Shown: in pieces, positions 1 through 47,048 of the stretch
How the letters are laid out: every line of letters starts with the position of its first letter
Position numbering within the stretch: position 1 is the stretch's first letter
Virus record (IMG/VR): IMGVR_UViG_2563366978_000001
Strand: one strand, 5' to 3'
DNA length: 47,048 nucleotides
DNA from: a virus
Lineage: Duplodnaviria > Heunggongvirae > Uroviricota > Caudoviricetes
Position numbers and translations under genes: made by a program
The notes under the pieces: model-generated
What the model was told of the DNA's origin: nothing
The model's database searches: none
The model's input: the letters and a program-made list of their open reading frames with translations, nothing else

Positions 1-24
1 AGGAACAAATTTTAACGTTCCGAT

Positions 25-114
25 ATTGTGTTTTTATTTATTATCCGTTATTGTGTTCTGTTAGTTTGTGGCTAAGTTAACGCGTTATTAGTTATCTTAT
101 TCTCAAATTGTGTT
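25..114. repeat. Left telomere-proximal repeat cluster (ATTGTGTT at 25-32 and 107-114, GTGTTCT at 53-59); also the telN upstream region
   Basis: Direct reading; GTGTTCT is the reverse complement of the AGAACAC repeats at the right end. Confidence 0.6.
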
Positions 115-2221: not shown

Positions 2222-3004
2222 CTATTTATTGGTGATTTCTGCTGGCTTTAGCTGCGCGGATAACTGCTCAAGTTTTTGAACTGCCAGTTCAAAATGCGCG
2301 GGTAACGCCTTTTCCAGATCAGAGTTAATATCGGTGATGGGTAAATCACCACACGACATACTCCGCCTACCCCCACGAACAACATCACGCAACAACTCTC
2401 GTTCATACGTGCGCATGTTCCCCAATGCCGACTCAGCAGCCGTCAAAATCCGGCGCAGTTCTGCCGTAATTGCTGGCAAATCATCAACCGTTATGGGGTT
2501 CGGGGATGGATTACGACACGCCCGACGCAAAGCTAACCATACACCGCTAATCCAGGCATTTCGGTACTGAAAACTTTGTGCTATATCGTTAATCAGCCCT
2601 CGCAGATACTCTTTCTGCCTCCAGTTCAACGGCTCCGCTGCTCGCATTGGCTCAGGCTCGATGTAAACGTACTCTCCATTTTTGCGAATAGAGGGCAAGA
2701 CTTCGTTCGTTACCCATTTGCGAAACCGCCAAGCTGTTGTGCCTTGCTTCACCGCGTCACGGCAGCGGAGGATCAGGGTGTATAGACCTGACTCTGAAAT
2801 AATATTTAGCTTTTGCTCTCCGCCAGGGGTGTAACTTAAAGTTACACCCTTTTCATCCTCATCCAGAGACATTAGCGCCTTCCGGGAATTAACGAGTCTT
2901 AAAGCATCACATACATCCTTAGCCACAAACCACGGCTCACCGTTAATCATCACTACACGAACCTGATGCTCTTCCTGAAAGGAAAAGACTGCTAACGCGC
3001 TCAT
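2222..3004 (-). CDS. Phage antirepressor-like protein (BRO-N type N-terminal domain), 260 aa
   Basis: N-terminus FSFQEEHQVRVVMINGEPWFVAKDVCDALRL resembles the BRO-N/antirepressor fold; last gene of a coupled operon. Confidence 0.7.
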   Translation of the reverse strand: MSALAVFSFQEEHQVRVVMINGEPWFVAKDVCDALRLVNSRKALMSLDEDEKGVTLSYTPGGEQKLNIISESGLYTLILRCRDAVKQGTTAWRFRKWVTNEVLPSIRKNGEYVYIEPEPMRAAEPLNWRQKEYLRGLINDIAQSFQYRNAWISGVWLALRRACRNPSPNPITVDDLPAITAELRRILTAAESALGNMRTYERELLRDVVRGGRRSMSCGDLPITDINSDLEKALPAHFELAVQKLEQLSAQLKPAEITNK

Positions 3005-3727: not shown

Positions 3728-3775
3728 TAGTTTGCTTGAACAAACGATCAGAACATGAACAATGTTATTGTTCCG

Positions 3776-4588
3776 TTATAAGAAAGCCTCACGCGAACGG
3801 AACACCCACTCTAGCTGTACTGGATAAATTTCTCCCGTTTTAATATTTATTAGGCGCGCGGCTAATAACTCACCCATAAAAACCTGAGTTTTATGGCTCA
3901 TATCTGACGGGTTAAAAATAGTAGGTGATGTTATATCAATATGATTACTGCTTAACCCATTTATCTTTGCTAAATATTCAATTCTAAGGTCTTTTACATT
4001 AACATCTTTTGGTATTTGTCCTTTTATATCAATATCTGCCCATATTGTTTCAGGGTTCCCTTCATTTATTTGTGTACTACCAAAGATAATTTCGGCACCT
4101 AAAGTATTTAACACTTCTACATCAGCAGATATTCCAAAAGCATTAGCACCAACATAGCTTCCATGCTTTGTTATTTCAGAGGAATCGACATGAAAACCAT
4201 ACCATCCAGACATATCTCGAGATGTTATCACGCTATCACTACCGCTATTCTCAACAAAATCACGGTTAAGATATGTTCCTGAGTATGTGATACTTCTAGG
4301 GATAGACAAACCTTGAGATGTTAAAACGTTGTTGTATGGCGCGTATGTTAATGAGTGAACGACATATCCACGCCATGAACCATCATCTATCTTTGATGCA
4401 ATAATTCTATTAAATTCCTTACCTGTGAGTATTTTGCTGCTAAAATCACCAACAGAGTTGATAGGTACTCTTTTTTCTTTTTCGAATTTATACTCAACGT
4501 CCGTTGATGCCTTATTATCATATTGATAAGTGCATCCAGATAATAACAAGATAGAGAGTAATAAAGCTGTTGTTTTTTTGTTACGCAT
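3776..4588 (-). CDS. Lipoprotein, 270 aa (signal peptide with lipobox LLSGC)
   Basis: N-terminal MRNKKTTALLLSILLLSGC; AT-rich codon usage unlike the flanking backbone. Confidence 0.75.
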   Translation of the reverse strand: MRNKKTTALLLSILLLSGCTYQYDNKASTDVEYKFEKEKRVPINSVGDFSSKILTGKEFNRIIASKIDDGSWRGYVVHSLTYAPYNNVLTSQGLSIPRSITYSGTYLNRDFVENSGSDSVITSRDMSGWYGFHVDSSEITKHGSYVGANAFGISADVEVLNTLGAEIIFGSTQINEGNPETIWADIDIKGQIPKDVNVKDLRIEYLAKINGLSSNHIDITSPTIFNPSDMSHKTQVFMGELLAARLINIKTGEIYPVQLEWVFRSREAFL

Positions 4589-4677
4589 AATATTAACTTA
4601 ACCTATTTGATTAATAATATGTTATTCCATTAAATAAAATATGCCGAGAACGGTTTAACTTGAACAGTCATCACTAT

Positions 4678-5085
4678 TCAATCAACTTTTTTAGCATCAG
4701 CCATACGCTTCAACCAGTAATCAACAATCGGCTGCTCATCCACAGAATGTTTACCTGGTATAACTCGCCAGCTATCTTGCGAAAATCTGCCGTACTTACG
4801 CGGGAATAGGCCTTTCTTTATCTCCCGCCATGTACTAGGAAAACCATCCACAAAAGTACCAATTAACAGGAGAGGGACAAAAATCAGAGCTACAAACCAT
4901 CGTGCAAGAAAGTGTTCAACAACAACATTTTCACCGTTGTAGTAATACGCATACGCATCCAATATGCGAATTTTCCTTACCTTAAAAATAGCCTTATGCT
5001 GAGAACGACTTAACTTGATACGAATGTATCCCTTATCCAAAGGGGATTCGTATTTGTATGATTGAACAGCCATTTTTAACCCCAC
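4678..5085 (-). CDS. Hypothetical membrane protein, 135 aa (one central hydrophobic segment)
   Basis: ORF with hydrophobic stretch WFVALIFVPLLLIGTFV; AT-rich. Confidence 0.55.
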   Translation of the reverse strand: MGLKMAVQSYKYESPLDKGYIRIKLSRSQHKAIFKVRKIRILDAYAYYYNGENVVVEHFLARWFVALIFVPLLLIGTFVDGFPSTWREIKKGLFPRKYGRFSQDSWRVIPGKHSVDEQPIVDYWLKRMADAKKVD

Positions 5086-5402
5086 TCACCATCAGCAAAC
5101 AAAGCGTTATACTCTGACAATGGTAGACGGTTGCCCTCGATGTAGAGATTCAGTTCATACTTCGTCTCCGGGTTTTCCTTGTCGGCTCGTTCCCAACGCT
5201 CAGCAGCCTTACGCGCCAATAATTCCACTGCTTTCAGATAATCCTCCGTACGGAACCAGCCAAAGATAAGGCCACGATCTGTTACAGCCCAGGCGACCTT
5301 TTTTTCTTCCTCCTGGATAGCCCTAATGCGTCGTTCGCATTCATCCCGGCAGAACTGCAGCTGACGGTAATCAAGTTTGTCCAAAAATGCAGTAGTAGAC
5401 AT
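5076..5402 (-). CDS. Hypothetical protein, 108 aa
   Basis: ORF tightly packed with its neighbours in the same AT-rich operon. Confidence 0.55.
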   Translation of the reverse strand: MSTTAFLDKLDYRQLQFCRDECERRIRAIQEEEKKVAWAVTDRGLIFGWFRTEDYLKAVELLARKAAERWERADKENPETKYELNLYIEGNRLPLSEYNALFADGEWG

Positions 5403-5406
5403 ATTT

Positions 5407-5598
5407 TTACTCCCCGTTCACCGAAAATTCACGATAGAAACGTTTCCACATACGATAAGTCTGCGCAAATTGTTCACCACGAAACATCGCCTTCCTGGCC
5501 TTCATGTTTTCCTTGTGAGACTTTCGGTCTATGAACCAAAACCATTGATGGAACACACAAAGCAAGAGACACAAAGATAATATCCAATCATTACCCAT
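5407..5598 (-). CDS. Small hypothetical membrane protein, about 63 aa (MGNDWILSLCLLLCVF...)
   Basis: In-frame ATG at 5596-5598 just beyond the repA stop; the longer track ORF would overlap repA. Confidence 0.4.
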   Translation of the reverse strand: MGNDWILSLCLLLCVFHQWFWFIDRKSHKENMKARKAMFRGEQFAQTYRMWKRFYREFSVNGE

Positions 5599-8500
5599 AG
5601 AAAGCGCCCTGCTCTTCGTAGCTGCATGAGCTATTCCCCGTAATGTATTCACGTAACCGCCGCAGCTCATTGCTGGAAAGGTGATCCATGAACTCTGTGA
5701 GGTACAGGGATGCAAACGTCATAGCTATGCTGGCTGATGACCATGATGACATAGTGGCCAACTCCTCACTGGAAAGCGCACTCATCGCCCAGGACTCAGG
5801 TACAGCCACTGGCAACACGGCCAAAGCCTCAGAAATTACTGAATGAGGGGCGTTTTGAACCTGCTCGTTTGTGGATCGCGTTTTATCATCCATATATATA
5901 TTGAGATCCAAATCGCGATCCATTTCGATGGCTGTCTTCTCGGCTTTACGCGTTTTTAGGGTTAGGCCATCTTTCTGACGCTGAACAAGAATATCCAGCA
6001 TAAATGCCGCTGATTCAGGCTCAACAAAACGCAAGGTTGGACGCTTATCGCCGTCTCTGCCGCGACGTTTACCTGTTTTAAGGCCAAGAGAGTCGCAAAT
6101 GTTTTTAAACAACGCTTCCGGCACTTTAGGCTTCCCTTTTGGCGTCATAAAACCACCAATGTGCAGAACGTTATTCAACAGGTCACGGCGTTCGGCTGTC
6201 ATGAGGTTATCTCGAGCGAATTTGAGACGCTCCTGAGTCGCCTCGCCGGTCATAGTCTCAGGGTTGATACCGCAGTCGATAAAGTACTGCCGGAGAGTTG
6301 CTGATTTAAGCGCATAGAAACCGCGCGCCCCGACTTCAACAGTAGGAGTAGCTTTTACCTTGTGATCGATTATTCCAGGGAATTTAGTTTTAAAGACATC
6401 ATCAGCCTGCTCGCGAGTCATCGCGGTCACTACAAAATATTGCCACTGTCCCGCCTGACGGTATGTGTAGGTAAAATTGATGGCTGCTTCTTCCCGGTCG
6501 TAACGACGAGCTGTTACCTCATCTAAAAGCATTGTTTCATAGCGGCGAACTTTGTCTCGAGCACCATCGAAATAGAATTTCAGCGTGCCTTCTTCAACCG
6601 GTAGTTTCAGTTCGTTTTCAATATCCCAGCGGACAAGTTTTGCCTGTTCTTCAAGCGTCAGCGCGCGTTTTTTTAGCAGTTCTTCACGCTCTGATTCTTG
6701 TGGTGTTTCTGTATTGAGGTGCAGATCCAGTGTCTGTTCCCACACAATATCCCGCGCTTCTTTACGCAGATCTTTACCGATATCATTCGCAGCATAATCG
6801 GTGGCCAGCGGTGATACCTTATAACCGTCGCTGTGCATGATGCAGATCATGTTGCTGGCGTAGTCGTTACGCGCAGTCGCTTCAATTGCGGCTGCTTTAA
6901 TTTTCATCCTGGTAAAGTCGGTATTGGCCACCCCCATTGATATACGGTCGCCATCGAAAACGACATCCGTAAGTTCACCGTTCATACCTGCGGTAGCAAG
7001 CAATGCCTGGGCGAATGCTCGTTCTATTTTTTGCGGGTCAGTTTCACGTTTTGCACGAGCTTTATCAAAGCCGATAATAAATTCTTTTGCTGTACGGTCG
7101 CGGCGTAGCATTTGCACTGCATCACTGGGTACAACTTCACCACAGAACATGCCGAAATGACGGTCAAAATGTTTTTGCTCAATCGACACGCCGGATGAAA
7201 TAGACGGGCTATAAATCAGGCCGTCGTATTTTTTGACCATCTTTTTCGGTTGATTGGTAAATGCTTCAACTTCTGGCTCTGGTTTGTTTTTCTGGTTTAC
7301 ACACAGAAATTTCTTACCAGGAAAATGCATTCTCAGGGTGGCTGTCACATCTTCTGCAAAGGTGGAGCTGTCGGTGGCCAACATGATTTTTTCGCCATCC
7401 GATACAGCTTTCACCACCTCGGTCATGATGCGATCTTTTTCTGTATAAAAAACCCGGATTGGCTCACCTGTTTCGCGGTTGCGAACATCAACAGGTAATT
7501 CAATTACGTGGATCTGCAGCCATGCCGGTAAACCTAGTTCTTCACGGCGTTTCATAGCCAGTTCAGCCAGGTCAACCAGCAGATCGTTCGCATCAGCATC
7601 CACCATGATTGGGTGTTGTTCCGTTCTGGCCAGCGCGTCAATTAGCGTATTGAATACAGCCACCGGGTTTTCCATAGCCCGACCGGAAAGAACGGCACGT
7701 AGCCCTTGTGTGGCCTCGTCAAAGCCAAAATAGTCGTGCTGGCGCATCAACGGTTGCCAGCAGTTTTTAACAATCGAGTTTATGCAGATGGTCAGTTTAC
7801 TGGCGTATGGAGCCATTTCCTGATAGCCAGGGTCCTGATAGTGCAGGATATCGGTTTTTACACCTTTTCCTTCTGTCATCATTTCCCACAGGCCACCAAT
7901 AAGGGAAACACGGTGAGCAACAGAGATACCACGTTCTGAGCTATGCATTAAAGGTCGTAACAATCCAGTAGATTTGCCGGAACCCATACCAGCACGAACG
8001 ATGACTATCCCCTGTAGTGATTGCACATACTTCAGGACGTCATCGGTCATTACCGAAGTTTCAAGACGCTTATAGGTGATATGTTGAGGACGTTTATTGG
8101 GATCAGTTATGCGTTCGCTGAATGAGCGCGGAGCCTGGGCAATACGGCACTTTTTATTCAGGCGACGGGCAATGTGGTCTTTTACCGTAGCGCGATAGAT
8201 ATTTTCCAGCCCCATTTCACGCAGAACGATGCAGAACATGTTAAATAAGTCTGACGGACTGTTAGGAACCGGACAGGTTAGCATGCCAATATCCACCGCT
8301 CTCAGCAGCTCTTTGGCAAAAGTACGACGGTTATCCCGCTTAATTGTCTTCAGGCGGTTGAGCGTCAGAGATAGCAAATCAGTGCCGGTTTTCAGGCGGT
8401 TTGCAGTTGCAAACAGTTGACGTGCTGTTTCACGAAGTCCACGCAGTTTGTGCAGGTCGTTGAAGTCACTGCACTCCATTTGCGGATCGTCTTCAAAAGT

Positions 8501-9586
8501 TGGATAGACGCAGCGGACATCGTTGAATTTCGATAAGATTTCATAGCCAGTCCGCAGGCCGGTATTCCCTTTTCCTTCTGTGGCTGATTTCCGGTCATTA
8601 TCCAGTGCGCAGGTGATTTTTGCCGCCGGGTACATGTTTACCAGTTGTTCCACAACATGAACCATGTTATTAGCGGATACAGCGACAACCACAGCGTCAA
8701 AGCGTTTATCTTTTTTCGTGGCAAGCCAGATGGATGCACCAGTAGCAAAACCTTCTGTAACAGCGATGTTTTGCGCCCCTTTTAGCTCACCGATAACAAA
8801 GCAGGCACCGACGAAATCGCCGCTGGTTACGGCGCTGGTCTGGTATTTTCCACCTTGTTTGTCGATTCGCTGCCAACCCACAATACGACCATCGTAACGA
8901 CCGTCCAGGTGAGCCAGAGGGATAGCCATATACGTGGTTGGCCCCCTGCTCCATTTTGCGCTGTCGTGACTGGTCACGCGACGCACATCACACGAATTAA
9001 AAACGTCACGAATACCTTTTTTAATCGCATATGGCCATGAGCCGTCTTCTGCAGGAGCATGTTCCCACGCGCTGTGGAATGCCAGCCATCCCAGCAAACG
9101 TTCATGGTCCATTTGGTTGTTTTTCAGGTCATTAATTCGTTTTTGTTCTTCACGGCGACGACGTGCTTCGGCCTGACGTTCTATTCTTGCCCGTTCTTCT
9201 TCCGGTTGTGCGACCACGGTCGCATTATTCCGTTGTTGCTCACGGCGATATTCAGAAAACAGGAAGGAGAAACCGCTCCATGAGCCAGCATCGCTGCCTT
9301 TATGGACGAAGTTAATGAACGGGTAATCAATCCCTTTGCTGTGTTCCAGCCGGGAGTAAATTTCTACGCGTCCTTTGAGGCTCTTTTCGAGAGCTTCTGG
9401 AGATGTTTTATTGTATGAAGAGTAACGCTCAACACCCCCGCGAGGGTTGAGTTGGATGTTGTCGGAACAGGCAGACCAGTTGATACCAGCCATCTGTGCC
9501 AGCTCGGTTAGTTCATCCCGTGCTGCTTCAATTAGCGAGAACGGATCGCTGCCAAAGCGATCCGCATAGAAATCGTTTAATGTCAT
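5591..9586 (-). CDS. repA: Replication protein RepA (primase-helicase), 1331 aa
   Basis: Single ORF of N15 RepA size (about 1324 aa from memory) in the N15 position between immunity region and telN side. Confidence 0.9.
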   Translation of the reverse strand: MTLNDFYADRFGSDPFSLIEAARDELTELAQMAGINWSACSDNIQLNPRGGVERYSSYNKTSPEALEKSLKGRVEIYSRLEHSKGIDYPFINFVHKGSDAGSWSGFSFLFSEYRREQQRNNATVVAQPEEERARIERQAEARRRREEQKRINDLKNNQMDHERLLGWLAFHSAWEHAPAEDGSWPYAIKKGIRDVFNSCDVRRVTSHDSAKWSRGPTTYMAIPLAHLDGRYDGRIVGWQRIDKQGGKYQTSAVTSGDFVGACFVIGELKGAQNIAVTEGFATGASIWLATKKDKRFDAVVVAVSANNMVHVVEQLVNMYPAAKITCALDNDRKSATEGKGNTGLRTGYEILSKFNDVRCVYPTFEDDPQMECSDFNDLHKLRGLRETARQLFATANRLKTGTDLLSLTLNRLKTIKRDNRRTFAKELLRAVDIGMLTCPVPNSPSDLFNMFCIVLREMGLENIYRATVKDHIARRLNKKCRIAQAPRSFSERITDPNKRPQHITYKRLETSVMTDDVLKYVQSLQGIVIVRAGMGSGKSTGLLRPLMHSSERGISVAHRVSLIGGLWEMMTEGKGVKTDILHYQDPGYQEMAPYASKLTICINSIVKNCWQPLMRQHDYFGFDEATQGLRAVLSGRAMENPVAVFNTLIDALARTEQHPIMVDADANDLLVDLAELAMKRREELGLPAWLQIHVIELPVDVRNRETGEPIRVFYTEKDRIMTEVVKAVSDGEKIMLATDSSTFAEDVTATLRMHFPGKKFLCVNQKNKPEPEVEAFTNQPKKMVKKYDGLIYSPSISSGVSIEQKHFDRHFGMFCGEVVPSDAVQMLRRDRTAKEFIIGFDKARAKRETDPQKIERAFAQALLATAGMNGELTDVVFDGDRISMGVANTDFTRMKIKAAAIEATARNDYASNMICIMHSDGYKVSPLATDYAANDIGKDLRKEARDIVWEQTLDLHLNTETPQESEREELLKKRALTLEEQAKLVRWDIENELKLPVEEGTLKFYFDGARDKVRRYETMLLDEVTARRYDREEAAINFTYTYRQAGQWQYFVVTAMTREQADDVFKTKFPGIIDHKVKATPTVEVGARGFYALKSATLRQYFIDCGINPETMTGEATQERLKFARDNLMTAERRDLLNNVLHIGGFMTPKGKPKVPEALFKNICDSLGLKTGKRRGRDGDKRPTLRFVEPESAAFMLDILVQRQKDGLTLKTRKAEKTAIEMDRDLDLNIYMDDKTRSTNEQVQNAPHSVISEALAVLPVAVPESWAMSALSSEELATMSSWSSASIAMTFASLYLTEFMDHLSSNELRRLREYITGNSSCSYEEQGAFYG
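5873..5922. other. Candidate replication origin inside the 3' part of repA: 8-bp inverted repeat GGATCGCG/CGCGATCC around an AT-rich core with three GATC sites
   Basis: Direct reading; N15-type origins are reported within the 3' part of repA (from memory). Confidence 0.3.
9209..9224. repeat. sopC-like palindrome TGCGACCACGGTCGCA (inside repA); putative centromere site
   Basis: 16-bp core of the palindrome family repeated five times in the window. Confidence 0.55.
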
Positions 9587-9831: not shown

Positions 9832-10428
9832 TCATCTACCCTCAACCATGAATGATTTGATCGTTCCGACTATTTGGTGAACAAATTCAAGATCGCTTTT
9901 CCTGAAGATGGCGCGTTGTGAATTTGTTCCGTCCAGATAGTAATTTTCATCATCAAAACGGGCCAGGCGCTGGATGGTGATATTTCCTGCAGTATCACGA
10001 ACCAGAACATCCTCGCCGGGAACCAGTTCCAGCGCAGAATCGACCAGGAGAAAATCGCCTGGCTGATAGTTTCCCTGCGCCAGATTGCTGATAGTTAACG
10101 CATAAACAGTATTGCGCTGGCTGATGAATGGCAGGAATCGCTCAGTATTTGGAACCTGTCCTGGCTTCCACTCTTCATCAGGTCCACTTTCAGTTGTGCC
10201 AATAACAGGAATGCGATCAGGGTCATATTCTGTCCCATACAGCACCCAATGCACTGGCTTGCGTAAGCACTTAGCCAGGGCAATACCTATCTCCAGTGAC
10301 GGCATTACGTCGCCACGTTCTAAGTTTTGGACGCCTGCAATAGAGATATCGACAGCCTCAGCAACTTCTCGCAACGTCAGCTTCATCTCTAAACGGCGTG
10401 CTTTCAGTCGTTCGCCTCGTGTTTTCAT
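9832..10428 (-). CDS. cB: CI-like prophage repressor (N-terminal HTH, C-terminal domain), N15 CB-like
   Basis: HTH motif LTLREVAEAVDISIAGVQNLERG; divergent from a cro-like gene across palindromic operators. Confidence 0.85.
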   Translation of the reverse strand: MKTRGERLKARRLEMKLTLREVAEAVDISIAGVQNLERGDVMPSLEIGIALAKCLRKPVHWVLYGTEYDPDRIPVIGTTESGPDEEWKPGQVPNTERFLPFISQRNTVYALTISNLAQGNYQPGDFLLVDSALELVPGEDVLVRDTAGNITIQRLARFDDENYYLDGTNSQRAIFRKSDLEFVHQIVGTIKSFMVEGR

Positions 10429-13210: not shown

Positions 13211-13920
13211 AATTTTCCAAATTTTCTGAGTTGGTGAATCGTATTTTGTCCAACAACCACAGCCATCGTCGCGATATGGATGTAACAATCGTTATTCATT
13301 CGCCTGGCAGCATTGGTTCAACACCTTCAGTTGAGGTTCAGTCAATTCACGCTGGTTTTGATTGGGATTCCGGGAAAGTGCTTATTTTCCCATCACAGCC
13401 ACTGACCACGCTAACACCAGAACAGATTACTGATATCACTGATAGTGTGCGCAAAGGTCAGTCCTGGCACGCATATCAGGAATACAAGAAGCATAAAGAG
13501 CAGTTGGAAAAATTATCGATTGAACTTGATGCCGCAAAACAGCGCATTGCAGAGCTGGAGGGTAATTTCACGGTGCTGGCAGTGGAGAATGCCTCAATGA
13601 AGCTGTTTATCAGGGGTTGTTGCTACGTGTTTGATGGCCAGCAGGATGAAATATCTGATGCGTATATCTGCGCAACAGACGGAGGGATGCCGCAAATTCC
13701 AGCCACCGATGCTTTCCTGTCTGAAGTGCGGGCGCAGGGGGTGGATGCTGCTATAGAAGCTGCAAAAAATCTGGTGGCCCAAGAATATGAGTATAAGGAT
13801 TTCAAAGCGGCGCAGAGTGATTGCTGTATGCACCCTGGTTCAGACTTGGTAGGGAAGGTTGAAATGACTGAGTGGTTAGTTGACTTTGCTGCCCAGCTTC
13901 GCAAAGGAGGCAACCAGTGA
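13207..13920 (+). CDS. Hypothetical protein, 237 aa
   Basis: ORF coupled to neighbours. Confidence 0.5.
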   Translation: MKFSKFSELVNRILSNNHSHRRDMDVTIVIHSPGSIGSTPSVEVQSIHAGFDWDSGKVLIFPSQPLTTLTPEQITDITDSVRKGQSWHAYQEYKKHKEQLEKLSIELDAAKQRIAELEGNFTVLAVENASMKLFIRGCCYVFDGQQDEISDAYICATDGGMPQIPATDAFLSEVRAQGVDAAIEAAKNLVAQEYEYKDFKAAQSDCCMHPGSDLVGKVEMTEWLVDFAAQLRKGGNQ

Positions 13921-14378
13921 GCGAAATTAATTACCAGGCACTGCGTGAGGCGGCGGAACGTGCAATTCCAGCAATGGAACGCCTGTTAATGTTGCCAGCT
14001 GATGATGATTTGTTAAGTGAACAGGAACTTAAAGATTACGGTGTGGATATTGATGCGCTCAACGCCTTCAAATTTCTGGCCGGACCAGAAACCGTGCTGG
14101 CACTACTGGATGAAAGGGAAAGAAACCAGCAATACATCAAACGCCGTGACCAGGAGAACGAGGATATTGCGCTAACGGTAGGGAAGCTGCGCGTTGAGCT
14201 GGAATCCGCAGAGAAGCGCATAGCAGAACTGGAAGCGCGGGAAATACTGCTCCCGGAACGTAGCAGTATGCTTCATCGAACAGATTTTAACGAGGATTAC
14301 CAAACGGTAATGGCATACAAAGTTTCTGAAGTCATCGCTGCAATCCGCGTCGCTGGCATTCGCATCAAAGGAGAGTGA
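13917..14378 (+). CDS. Ead/Ea22-like early-region protein, 153 aa
   Basis: N-terminus MSEINYQALREAAE resembles the Ead/Ea22 family of enterobacterial prophages (from memory). Confidence 0.55.
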   Translation: MSEINYQALREAAERAIPAMERLLMLPADDDLLSEQELKDYGVDIDALNAFKFLAGPETVLALLDERERNQQYIKRRDQENEDIALTVGKLRVELESAEKRIAELEAREILLPERSSMLHRTDFNEDYQTVMAYKVSEVIAAIRVAGIRIKGE

Positions 14379-14379
14379 T

Positions 14380-14925
14380 ATGACCACTTTCACCGACAAA
14401 GAACTGATTAAAGAAATCAAAGAACGTATCAGCAGCCTGGACGTACGAGACGATATTGAGCGCCGTGCTTATGAAATTGCTCTGGCATCGCTGGAAGAGG
14501 ATCCGGTGGCATGGCTGCATTCAGACAATGGCTTAGGTATTCCGGCAATAACGAGGAGTAAACACATTGCTGACAGTTGGTTATCAAAGGGCTGGTATGT
14601 TCAGCCGCTATATATAGCCAAGCCAGTACCGGTGGTGCCAGATGTTCGTCCGTCTTTAAATAATGGCATAGTCGGTTTTGATGAAGGCTGGAACGCCTGC
14701 CGCGCCGCCATGCTTCAGAGTCAAGGTAATTGCATTAAGGATGGTTGGATAAGCTGTAGTGAGCAAATGCCAGATGATGGTCGTATTCAGTTTTCTGTTT
14801 CACTTCCAGCAGCATGTGGTGGAGATAAATATTTTATTGATGGTGTATTTCAACCTTTGAGATATGAGCGTGACTGTGAAAAAGCGGTTGTGGCCGCTGG
14901 CGGTGTAGTTAATTGGGTTAAGTAA
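14380..14925 (+). CDS. Hypothetical early-region protein, 181 aa (DUF551-like C-terminus)
   Basis: C-terminal WISCSEQMPD... pattern common in lambdoid early regions. Confidence 0.5.
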   Translation: MTTFTDKELIKEIKERISSLDVRDDIERRAYEIALASLEEDPVAWLHSDNGLGIPAITRSKHIADSWLSKGWYVQPLYIAKPVPVVPDVRPSLNNGIVGFDEGWNACRAAMLQSQGNCIKDGWISCSEQMPDDGRIQFSVSLPAACGGDKYFIDGVFQPLRYERDCEKAVVAAGGVVNWVK

Positions 14926-17131: not shown

Positions 17132-17265
17132 TGCCTGAAAAGTGGGCGCAGGACAAGTTGCAGCTTGTCCTGCGGTCAACCCATGCCAGAGCTATAGGCT
17201 GAACCTAAAGCCCACCCGCGATGCGCATCGCCGGGTTAGCTTACCCAGGCAAAAAAATAATAGCT

Positions 17266-18342
17266 ATGTTCAAAACCACTAATATTCATGGCGCGCAACT
17301 CGTTTGCGCAGATTCTCTGCAATTTATCAAAACCATCCCTGATAACTCGGTCAATTTGATTGCAACAGACCCACCATACTTCGGCGTAAAGGCTAACGCA
17401 TGGGATAACCAGTGGGATAGCGATGCTGACTTTTTGGGGTGGATTGATGAATTTTTGGCAGAATTTTGGCGGATATTGGCCCCTAATGGCAGCCTGTATA
17501 TGTTTACCGGCTCTCGCCTTGCGTCAAAAATTGAATTATTAACTCGCGACCGTTTCAATGTTCTGAACCATATCATTTGGGCTAAACCCAGTGGTATGTG
17601 GCGCGGTTGTCATAAAGAAAGTTTAAGGGCTTATTTTCCTGCCACTGAAAGAATATTATTTGCAGAGCATTACGGCGCGTCAGGTTATGCTAAAGGTCAG
17701 TCAGGTTATGCTTCAAAATGTGCAGATTTAAGAAAAAATATTTTTTCTCCACTAATTGATGCTTTTTCGCTGGCTCGCCGTCAGTTAGATATATCAGCCG
17801 CAGACATTAATTCAGCAACAGGAAAGCAGATGTGTTCGCACTGGTTTTCTTATTCGCAGTGGCGGCTTCCATCATTAAGTGATTTTAATAAACTATGCGA
17901 ATTATTTCGCAGGAAGGCAGATTCACTCGGTGTCCCGTGTCCATATCCTTTTAATGTTGATTATTCAGAACATGAAAAGCGTTATAGCGATCTGAAATTG
18001 CGTTATGAGGAAGTAAAGAAGCAGTATGATGATTTGAAGGCTCAGTATGAAAATTTGCGCCGCCCATTTCATGTTACTGCTGATGTACCTTATACCGATG
18101 TATGGGAGTTTCCTCCTGTGCAATATTATCCTGGCAAGCACCCATGTGAAAAACCTGCAGCGATGATGGAACATATTATAAAAAGTAGTTCCCGCCCCGG
18201 AGATATCGTTGCCGATTTCTTTATGGGATCAGGCTCTACTATTAAAGCCGCGCTGAAGTTAGGTCGTCAGGCAATCGGTATTGAGATTGAGGGTGAACGT
18301 TATCTTCAGACAGTTGATGAAGTGAAAAAGTTATTTGAGTAA
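17266..18342 (+). CDS. DNA methyltransferase (DPPY motif; N6-adenine or N4-cytosine class), about 358 aa, no adjacent restriction enzyme
   Basis: Motif IV ATDPPYFG before motif I FFMGSGST; start taken at the internal ATG 17266, the track ORF starts at 17221. Confidence 0.75.
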   Translation: MFKTTNIHGAQLVCADSLQFIKTIPDNSVNLIATDPPYFGVKANAWDNQWDSDADFLGWIDEFLAEFWRILAPNGSLYMFTGSRLASKIELLTRDRFNVLNHIIWAKPSGMWRGCHKESLRAYFPATERILFAEHYGASGYAKGQSGYASKCADLRKNIFSPLIDAFSLARRQLDISAADINSATGKQMCSHWFSYSQWRLPSLSDFNKLCELFRRKADSLGVPCPYPFNVDYSEHEKRYSDLKLRYEEVKKQYDDLKAQYENLRRPFHVTADVPYTDVWEFPPVQYYPGKHPCEKPAAMMEHIIKSSSRPGDIVADFFMGSGSTIKAALKLGRQAIGIEIEGERYLQTVDEVKKLFE

Positions 18343-20732: not shown

Positions 20733-20909
20733 CGCGGGTTTTCGCTATTTATGAAAATTTTCCGGTTTAAGGCGTTTCCGTTCTTCTTCTCCGTAACTTA
20801 ATGTTTTTATTTAAAACACCCCCTGAAAAGAAAGGAAACGACAGGTGCTGAAAACAGGCCTTTTGGCCTCTGTCGTTTCCTTTCTCTGTTTTTATCCGTG
20901 GAATGAACA

Positions 20910-46882: not shown

Positions 46883-47022
46883 GAACACAATCAAAGATCG
46901 TAAAACAACAATAATAATTCACACAAAATAAAGAACACAAATACAGAAAACAACAACACAATAAAAACAAGAGAACACAAGCTATAAATATTACACCAAT
47001 AGAGAACACTAATCAAGAACAT
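46883..47022. repeat. Right telomere-proximal repeat array: AGAACAC at 46883, 46933, 46973, 47003, and AGAACAT at 47016
   Basis: Direct reading; spacing shortens toward the end (50, 40, 30, 13 bp). Confidence 0.65.
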
Positions 47023-47048
47023 ATCAGCACATAATTCCCCATTATACG
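47022..47048. other. Half of the telomere resolution palindrome (telO/telRL-like): TATCAGCACATAATTCCCCATTATACG
   Basis: Matches the N15 telRL half-site TATCAGCACACAATTGCCCATTATACGC as I remember it with 2 mismatches; the window ends one base short of the predicted symmetry centre. Confidence 0.8.

Follow-up and report, generated by a model that had tools for sequence, protein, structure and literature searches.

A quasi-palindromic element in the 3' part of repA is the likely core of the replication origin of an N15-type phage-plasmid

The repA gene lies at 5591-9586 on the minus strand of the IMG/VR viral record IMGVR_UViG_2563366978_000001, a stretch of 47,048 nucleotides that was analysed whole and is called the window here. 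In the list of open reading frames (ORFs) its product is a primase-helicase replication initiator of 1331 aa. Near the 3' end of the gene is a quasi-palindrome of about 50 bp (51 bp, 5872-5922), with two inverted arms around an AT-rich centre, which is marked out by a minimum of synonymous variation, by covariation between its arms and by a hairpin. The element covers codons 1222-1239 of repA, about 280 bp before the stop codon, where a sequence-only reading of the window had placed an origin-like feature.

RepA is 99% identical to the protein annotated as 'primase' in Escherichia phage PhiR46_1, and its C-terminal 399 aa have 59% identity to N15 gp37 and 40% to the PY54 protein. It has a Pfam match to Herpes_ori_bp (residues 521-674, 25.6 bits with a cut-off of 20 bits) and a match to Toprim_3 (residues 274-383) that, at 22.4 bits, is below the 27.2-bit cut-off. 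The RepA proteins of N15 and PY54 are replicative helicases of superfamily 2 (SF2), confirmed by experiment, that also contain a fused primase domain (PMC4889955), and the window RepA, with its Toprim region and its UL9-like SF2 helicase region, agrees with that description. The element is located in the 3' portion of the gene for this N15-family primase-helicase, on a linear phage-plasmid that bears a protelomerase.

The 8-bp inverted repeat described in the sequence-only reading is present, with GGATCGCG at 5873-5880 and CGCGATCC at 5914-5921, but its length was understated. The exact inverted repeat is 9 bp (TGGATCGCG at 5872-5880 and CGCGATCCA at 5914-5922), and it extends to 13-nt arms that are complementary at 12 of 13 positions and separated by a 25-nt spacer. 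Arm A (TGGATCGCGTTTT, 5872-5884) holds an invariant GATC at 5874-5877, and Arm B (AAATCGCGATCCA, 5910-5922) holds another at 5917-5920, 43 bp from the first. Between the arms are the AT-rich centre (ATCATCCATATATATATTGA, 5885-5904), presumed to be the DNA-unwinding element, and an inner GATC at 5905-5908, recognised from the codon alignment and the element sequences. The three GATC sites noted earlier within 50 bp start at 5874, 5905 and 5917 and fall within 47 bp, with spacings of 12, 31 and 43 bp. The matching inner GATC of the opposite half has been lost in the window, which has GATGAT in place of GATCAT. The sequence also contains two tandem 11-nt direct repeats with a 12-bp period on the plus strand, GATCCAAATCG at 5905-5915 and GATCCATTTCG at 5917-5927.

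The core between the exact repeats is indeed AT-rich, as had been read from the sequence. No 33-mer of repA is richer in AT than 5881-5913 (21% GC). The gene's least stable duplexes, of 20 and 30 bp, begin at 5881 and 5883 and cover the AT-rich centre. As single-stranded DNA, the element folds into hairpins on the antisense strand (-11.1 kcal/mol, z -3.5) and on the sense strand (-12.1 kcal/mol, z -3.75), and both are more stable than all of 200 shuffled sequences. In the repA sense, codons 1222-1239 encode the peptide EMDRDLDLNIYMDDKTRS.

For comparison across RepA lineages, repA 3' ends were taken from phage records, species-representative genomes and IMG/VR viral contigs. The 68 distinct sequences were reduced to 35 representatives (<93% nucleotide identity), which form nine clades at 65% protein identity and range from 35 to 100% identity to the window, and the element was aligned through a protein-guided codon alignment. 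It is recognisable in every lineage of this alignment. The last 1260 nt contain only four invariant 4-mer columns, namely the two outer GATC sites and a pair of columns that overlap an obligatory Trp codon. The outer sites are 43 bp apart, without gaps, in 35 of 35 representatives, and they span codon boundaries at which the amino acids vary by clade (Asp followed by Arg, His, Leu or Pro at one, and Arg or Gly followed by Ser at the other). An inner GATC occurs in most clades and elsewhere is shifted by 1 nt or moved next to the outer GATC, and most lineages carry four GATC sites, two per arm. The TATAnATAT core of the centre is conserved across the family, with the TATA at 5900 kept in 83% of the representatives. 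The GATC sites are made of codons seldom used in these genes (CGA, GGA and the central ATA), and the rare Ile codon ATA in the AT-rich centre hardly varies.

The element is the strongest signal of synonymous constraint in the whole 4-kb repA gene. Synonymous change was scanned in 15-codon windows as the fraction that differ among paired codons for one and the same amino acid. Over the 3' end, the 35 representatives have a value of 0.171 at 5876-5920 versus 0.534 overall, and the next lowest scan window is at 0.416. A full-length scan of repA in eight phages has its minimum, 0.10, at 5858-5902 (gene mean 0.475, standard deviation 0.084), with 0.305 at 5906-5947. Together these show lowered synonymous change in a broader zone that includes the core (5858-5947), and accessory origin sequence may extend over this zone. 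The amino-acid conservation of the encoded peptide is low (0.39 and 0.21), and, taken by itself, this suggests that the peptide is a disordered linker.

The arms vary by clade and yet stay complementary. The window has the pair TGGATCGCGATTT and AAAACGCGATCCA, and the PY54 clade has GATCTAACTTG and CAAGTTGGATC. The arms form a perfect 13-bp repeat in the sequence L076 (TGATCCAGCTTTT and AAAAGCTGGATCA) and a perfect 12-bp repeat in L079-L081 (TGATCCAGATCT and AGATCTGGATCA). In an alignment of 31 sequences, 82.7% of the cells in the 14 arm pairs are paired, versus 27-46% when the partner column is slid, and eight pairs are changed on both sides versus one to four with a slid partner. The covariation score of the arms is 0.343 versus at most 0.081 with a slid partner, and strict Watson-Crick counts point the same way. 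Shared ancestry among the sequences means that independent events are about as numerous as the clades, not as the sequences. The symmetry of the arms is kept by compensatory substitutions. Codon by codon, the arm sequences may be evolving together with the C-terminal RepA linker that they encode.

The element aligns codon for codon with segments of the repA genes of N15 (AF064539, 30142-30194), phiKO2 (AY374448, 34568-34620) and PY54 (AJ564013, 27860-27912), so that by both position and sequence it is orthologous to conserved elements in the 3' regions of these genes. The 1996 GenBank record of N15 repA (U63085) has three repeat_region features, a tandem GATCCAnnTCG pair at 1460-1470 and 1472-1482 and an inverted copy at 1421-1431. 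The N15 authors placed these features exactly on the bases orthologous to the element, and the window keeps the same tandem pair. No annotation of an ori was found in the public phage records examined, including PhiR46_1 and the N15 repA record.

Replication has been described as initiating inside repA (PMC2847241), and repA alone suffices for circular replication, according to a source that cites a 2005 paper titled on PY54 repA as a minimal replicon (PMC10612081). The origin must therefore be within the gene. The abstract of Ziegelin et al. from 2005 reportedly describes a 212-bp PY54 origin in the 3' portion of repA, and conserved structural elements common to PY54, N15 and KO2 that are needed for function. 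The origin mapping in N15 (Mardanov and Ravin in 2006; Ravin in 2003) is likewise said to have put the origin in the 3' part of repA. These accounts, together with the repeat annotation in U63085, suggest that the mapped PY54 and N15 origin fragments contain exactly this element.

For the element itself, the analysis shows position, orthology, purifying selection at the nucleotide level, symmetry maintained through compensatory change and minimal duplex stability. The element is likely to be where the plasmid-prophage has the core of its replication origin, set in the repA reading frame, with the intragenic origins of N15, phiKO2 and PY54 as its orthologues. The N15-type origin proposed in the sequence-only reading is supported by the kind of replicon, which is an N15-type phage-plasmid, by the use of the same codons in N15, phiKO2 and PY54, and by nucleotide-level selection that is the strongest in repA.

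Several observations weigh against an origin core at this place. A 9-bp inverted repeat with a spacer of 10-60 nt is expected 0.82 times per shuffled repA and is observed once, and under uniform placement the probability that three GATC sites fall within 47 bp at any place in the window is ~0.33. Within this one sequence, chance alone could account for the inverted repeat and for the GATC cluster. GC skew gave no origin signal, as the cumulative minimum at 10-11 kb follows the switch in transcription between the divergent cB and cro. In the N15 clade the symmetry of the arms is down to 7 bp, which means that extensive palindromy is not universally required. The distance from inner to outer GATC within an arm is 6-7 bp in some clades and 12-13 bp in others, which argues against a fixed geometry of the SeqA type. 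Of the repeat and GATC features, only the combined pattern GATC-N8-GATC-N27-GATC stands out, with 0 of 100 shuffles containing it. Because the single-sequence features are not decisive, it is the comparative evidence that shows the element to be non-random.

The same features could in principle arise as a by-product of coding, if GAT and ATA codons simply spell an acidic linker rich in Asp and Ile that has no cis function. The encoded peptide is acidic, GAT codons readily make GATC, and the statistics of the single sequence are unremarkable. However, the amino acids differ between clades where the nucleotides are constant, synonymous change is about threefold below the level of the gene, and rare codons are fixed while the arms covary, and we give this explanation almost no credence. 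It is also very improbable that the element is a hairpin in the repA mRNA, conserved as RNA for mRNA stability or for the expression of the small genes downstream. The fold of the sense strand would suit such a hairpin, as would the covarying pairs, some of which are compatible with G-U pairing (11 U-G at one pair). An RNA structure leaves unexplained why both arms keep a palindromic GATC without exception next to pairs that covary freely, and it does not account for the fixed 43-bp spacing or the TATAnATAT centre. The antisense strand folds equally well, as expected of a DNA palindrome, and no Rfam match was found.

An accessory DNA site would place unwinding elsewhere in the 3' part of repA and leave to the element a role in control by Dam/SeqA or a host factor, in incompatibility, as an enhancer or as a site for another phage protein. 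The invariant GATC pairs could serve methylation sensing alone, the phage encodes a DNA adenine methylase, and repA has further zones of synonymous constraint at 6536-6580 and 8948-8992. Constraint is far stronger at the element than at these other zones, however, and of the constrained zones only the element coincides with the minimum of duplex stability of the gene and has the layout of symmetric arms and AT-rich centre. Its arm sequence occurs once in the window, which rules out a dispersed site of the centromere, partition or regulatory kind. An accessory site is improbable on this evidence.

Other kinds of element were considered for the same region. No sigma-70 promoter-like site was found in 5400-6400, so an internal promoter is unsupported; two weak terminator-like matches near 6000 are unrelated to the element. 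An iteron/DnaA-type plasmid origin, with at least three direct repeats of ~17-22 bp and a DnaA box, does not describe the locus. The segment 5400-6400 has no tandem repeats or iterons and only short two-copy direct repeats. No DnaA box (up to one mismatch) occurs within ~200 bp of the element; the nearest are at 5033 and 6160, and the count in the window is at the level of chance.

If the element is the origin core, RepA, as a Toprim primase fused to a UL9-like SF2 helicase, would recognise both inverted arms, each with its invariant GATC. The two arm sites, 43 bp apart, would be separated by about four helical turns. RepA would then melt the AT-rich 20-25 bp between the arms, load in both orientations and prime. 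Forks would then move in both directions as far as the hairpin telomeres, to be resolved by the protelomerase. We infer that RepA binds at the arms and that melting starts in the centre.

That GATC never changes, when the arm positions beside it are free to covary, suggests that GATC itself is recognised. RepA could be what recognises it, or else the Dam/SeqA system known from oriC and P1 oriR. As in a Dam/SeqA-type origin, a GATC cluster lies at the presumed unwinding element and is conserved beyond coding need (two sites invariant in 35/35). The spacings of 12, 31 and 43 bp would fall on one helical face, but the inner-outer distance within an arm varies between clades. On the plus strand, the ORF at 17221-18339 has a DPPY motif and 100% identity to the protein annotated as 'DNA adenine methylase' in PhiR46_1, and it may bear on the origin GATC sites. 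Over the whole window GATC is depleted (103 sites observed versus ~183 expected from base composition), and the origin triple is its tightest GATC cluster. Dam methylation or SeqA acting on these sites to time initiation is conceivable, but on balance doubtful. A broader proposal, that the N15-family origin is a methylation-gated symmetric element with an invariant 43-bp GATC pair around an unwinding centre in at least nine RepA clades, is speculative and rather unlikely. If true, GATC methylation by the host Dam or the phage adenine methylase would time initiation or set the copy number of linear phage-plasmids. To our knowledge, such a layer of control by methylation is not established for the N15 family.

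The full-length scan also finds the segment 9197-9241 in the 5' part of repA (minus-strand sense, synonymous change 0.239), which serves as a positive control. This zone holds the palindrome TGCGACCGTGGTCGCA at 9209-9224, whose orthologues are a site in phiKO2 repA with the annotation 'putative plasmid partitioning site' and GGGACCACGGTCCC in PY54. As the scan recovers the annotated phiKO2 site, the method detects embedded cis elements. The palindrome probably serves as a centromere site for ParB/SopB within repA.

The third strongest zone of synonymous constraint in repA is at 8948-8992 (minus-strand sense, 0.229). It has a small inverted repeat, CGTGAC-CA-GTCACG, at ~8965-8978, and it contains CGTCGCGTGACCAGTCACGAC, whose letters are unchanged from the window through to N15, though not in PY54. 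Synonymous change is also lowered at 6536-6580 (0.26 in the full-length scan and 0.443 in the scan of the 35 representatives), where there is no obvious motif.

The window is an N15-like telomere phage-plasmid and, around the element, is 97.9% identical to PhiR46_1 in nucleotide comparison. The two genomes have the same gene order and are collinear, with 93-99% identity outside the segments that do not align. Remoter relatives of the region are YDC107_1, several Klebsiella phage-plasmids, phiKO2 and N15. The annotations of PhiR46_1 include telL and telR, a 633-aa protein in the position of the protelomerase, the 1331-aa 'primase', cI, ParA/ParB and lambda-like structural genes. The start of the window (1-60) falls 54 nt inside telL of PhiR46_1 and its end (46990-47048) stops 12 nt short of telR, so that the hairpin telomere tips are outside the window at both ends. 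With ends near telL and telR and collinearity with PhiR46_1, the window is essentially a whole N15-type linear plasmid prophage.

The window segments 2111-2922, 3753-4663 and 13559-14776 have no alignment to PhiR46_1 and represent variable cargo, located between the protelomerase and repA and in the early right arm. ORFs in the divergent segments include 2222-3004 (260 aa) and 3776-4588 (270 aa). Two further inverted repeats were observed in the window. A long exact one at 20829-20885 (16-nt arms AGAAAGGAAACGACAG, 25-nt spacer) aligns to PhiR46_1 ~80 nt upstream of the terminase small-subunit gene and may be cos-associated or a terminator. The other, at 9879-9929, is an 11-bp exact repeat (GAACAAATTCA) with a 29-nt spacer, inside the cI/cB repressor ORF (9832-10428, minus strand).

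For a common class of linear phage-plasmids in E. coli and Klebsiella, the likely origin core is narrowed here to about 50 bp, which is useful for annotation, and its location matters for N15-based linear cloning vectors and for the prediction of incompatibility. The element is also a clear case of one set of bases serving both as a cis-acting DNA element and as coding frame, in which synonymous constraint and the covariation of the arms can be measured. Elements of this type are already known from N15, phiKO2 and PY54, and the current view of these replicons is unchanged.

Like the origins of N15, phiKO2 and PY54, the window element uses the same codons in the 3' part of repA and has GATC-bearing arms around an ATATA-type centre, and the genomes share a protelomerase, telL/telR, ParAB and cB/cro. 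Unlike those of N15, the window arms are longer and more symmetric (12/13 complementary versus 7 bp). The Klebsiella and PY54 clades have four GATC sites, in contrast to three in the window clade, whose variant is known from sequence alone.

E. coli oriC and phage P1 oriR have GATC-rich unwinding regions under the control of Dam methylation and SeqA. The window element resembles them in the clustering of GATC at an AT-rich unwinding region, in conservation beyond coding need and in the Dam-positive Enterobacterales hosts, but it has no nearby DnaA box and no tandem arrays of 13-mers or heptamers. The initiator here is a phage primase-helicase and not DnaA or an iteron-binding Rep. At oriS of herpes simplex virus, the origin-binding SF2 helicase UL9 acts on inverted recognition arms that flank an AT-rich spacer. 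The window initiator has a UL9-like SF2 helicase domain, and its element has inverted arms around an AT spacer and the potential to form a hairpin. The two origins have no sequence relationship and RepA has its own primase, so the likeness is an analogy of layout and not a homology of sites. In the satellite phage P4, the alpha protein is a primase-helicase initiator that acts at ori/crr and binds octamer iterons. As with alpha, one multifunctional primase-helicase would start replication at a specific phage origin without the host DnaA. P4 has multiple direct octamers and two sites outside the alpha frame, whereas the window has a single palindrome inside the initiator gene and no iteron arrays.

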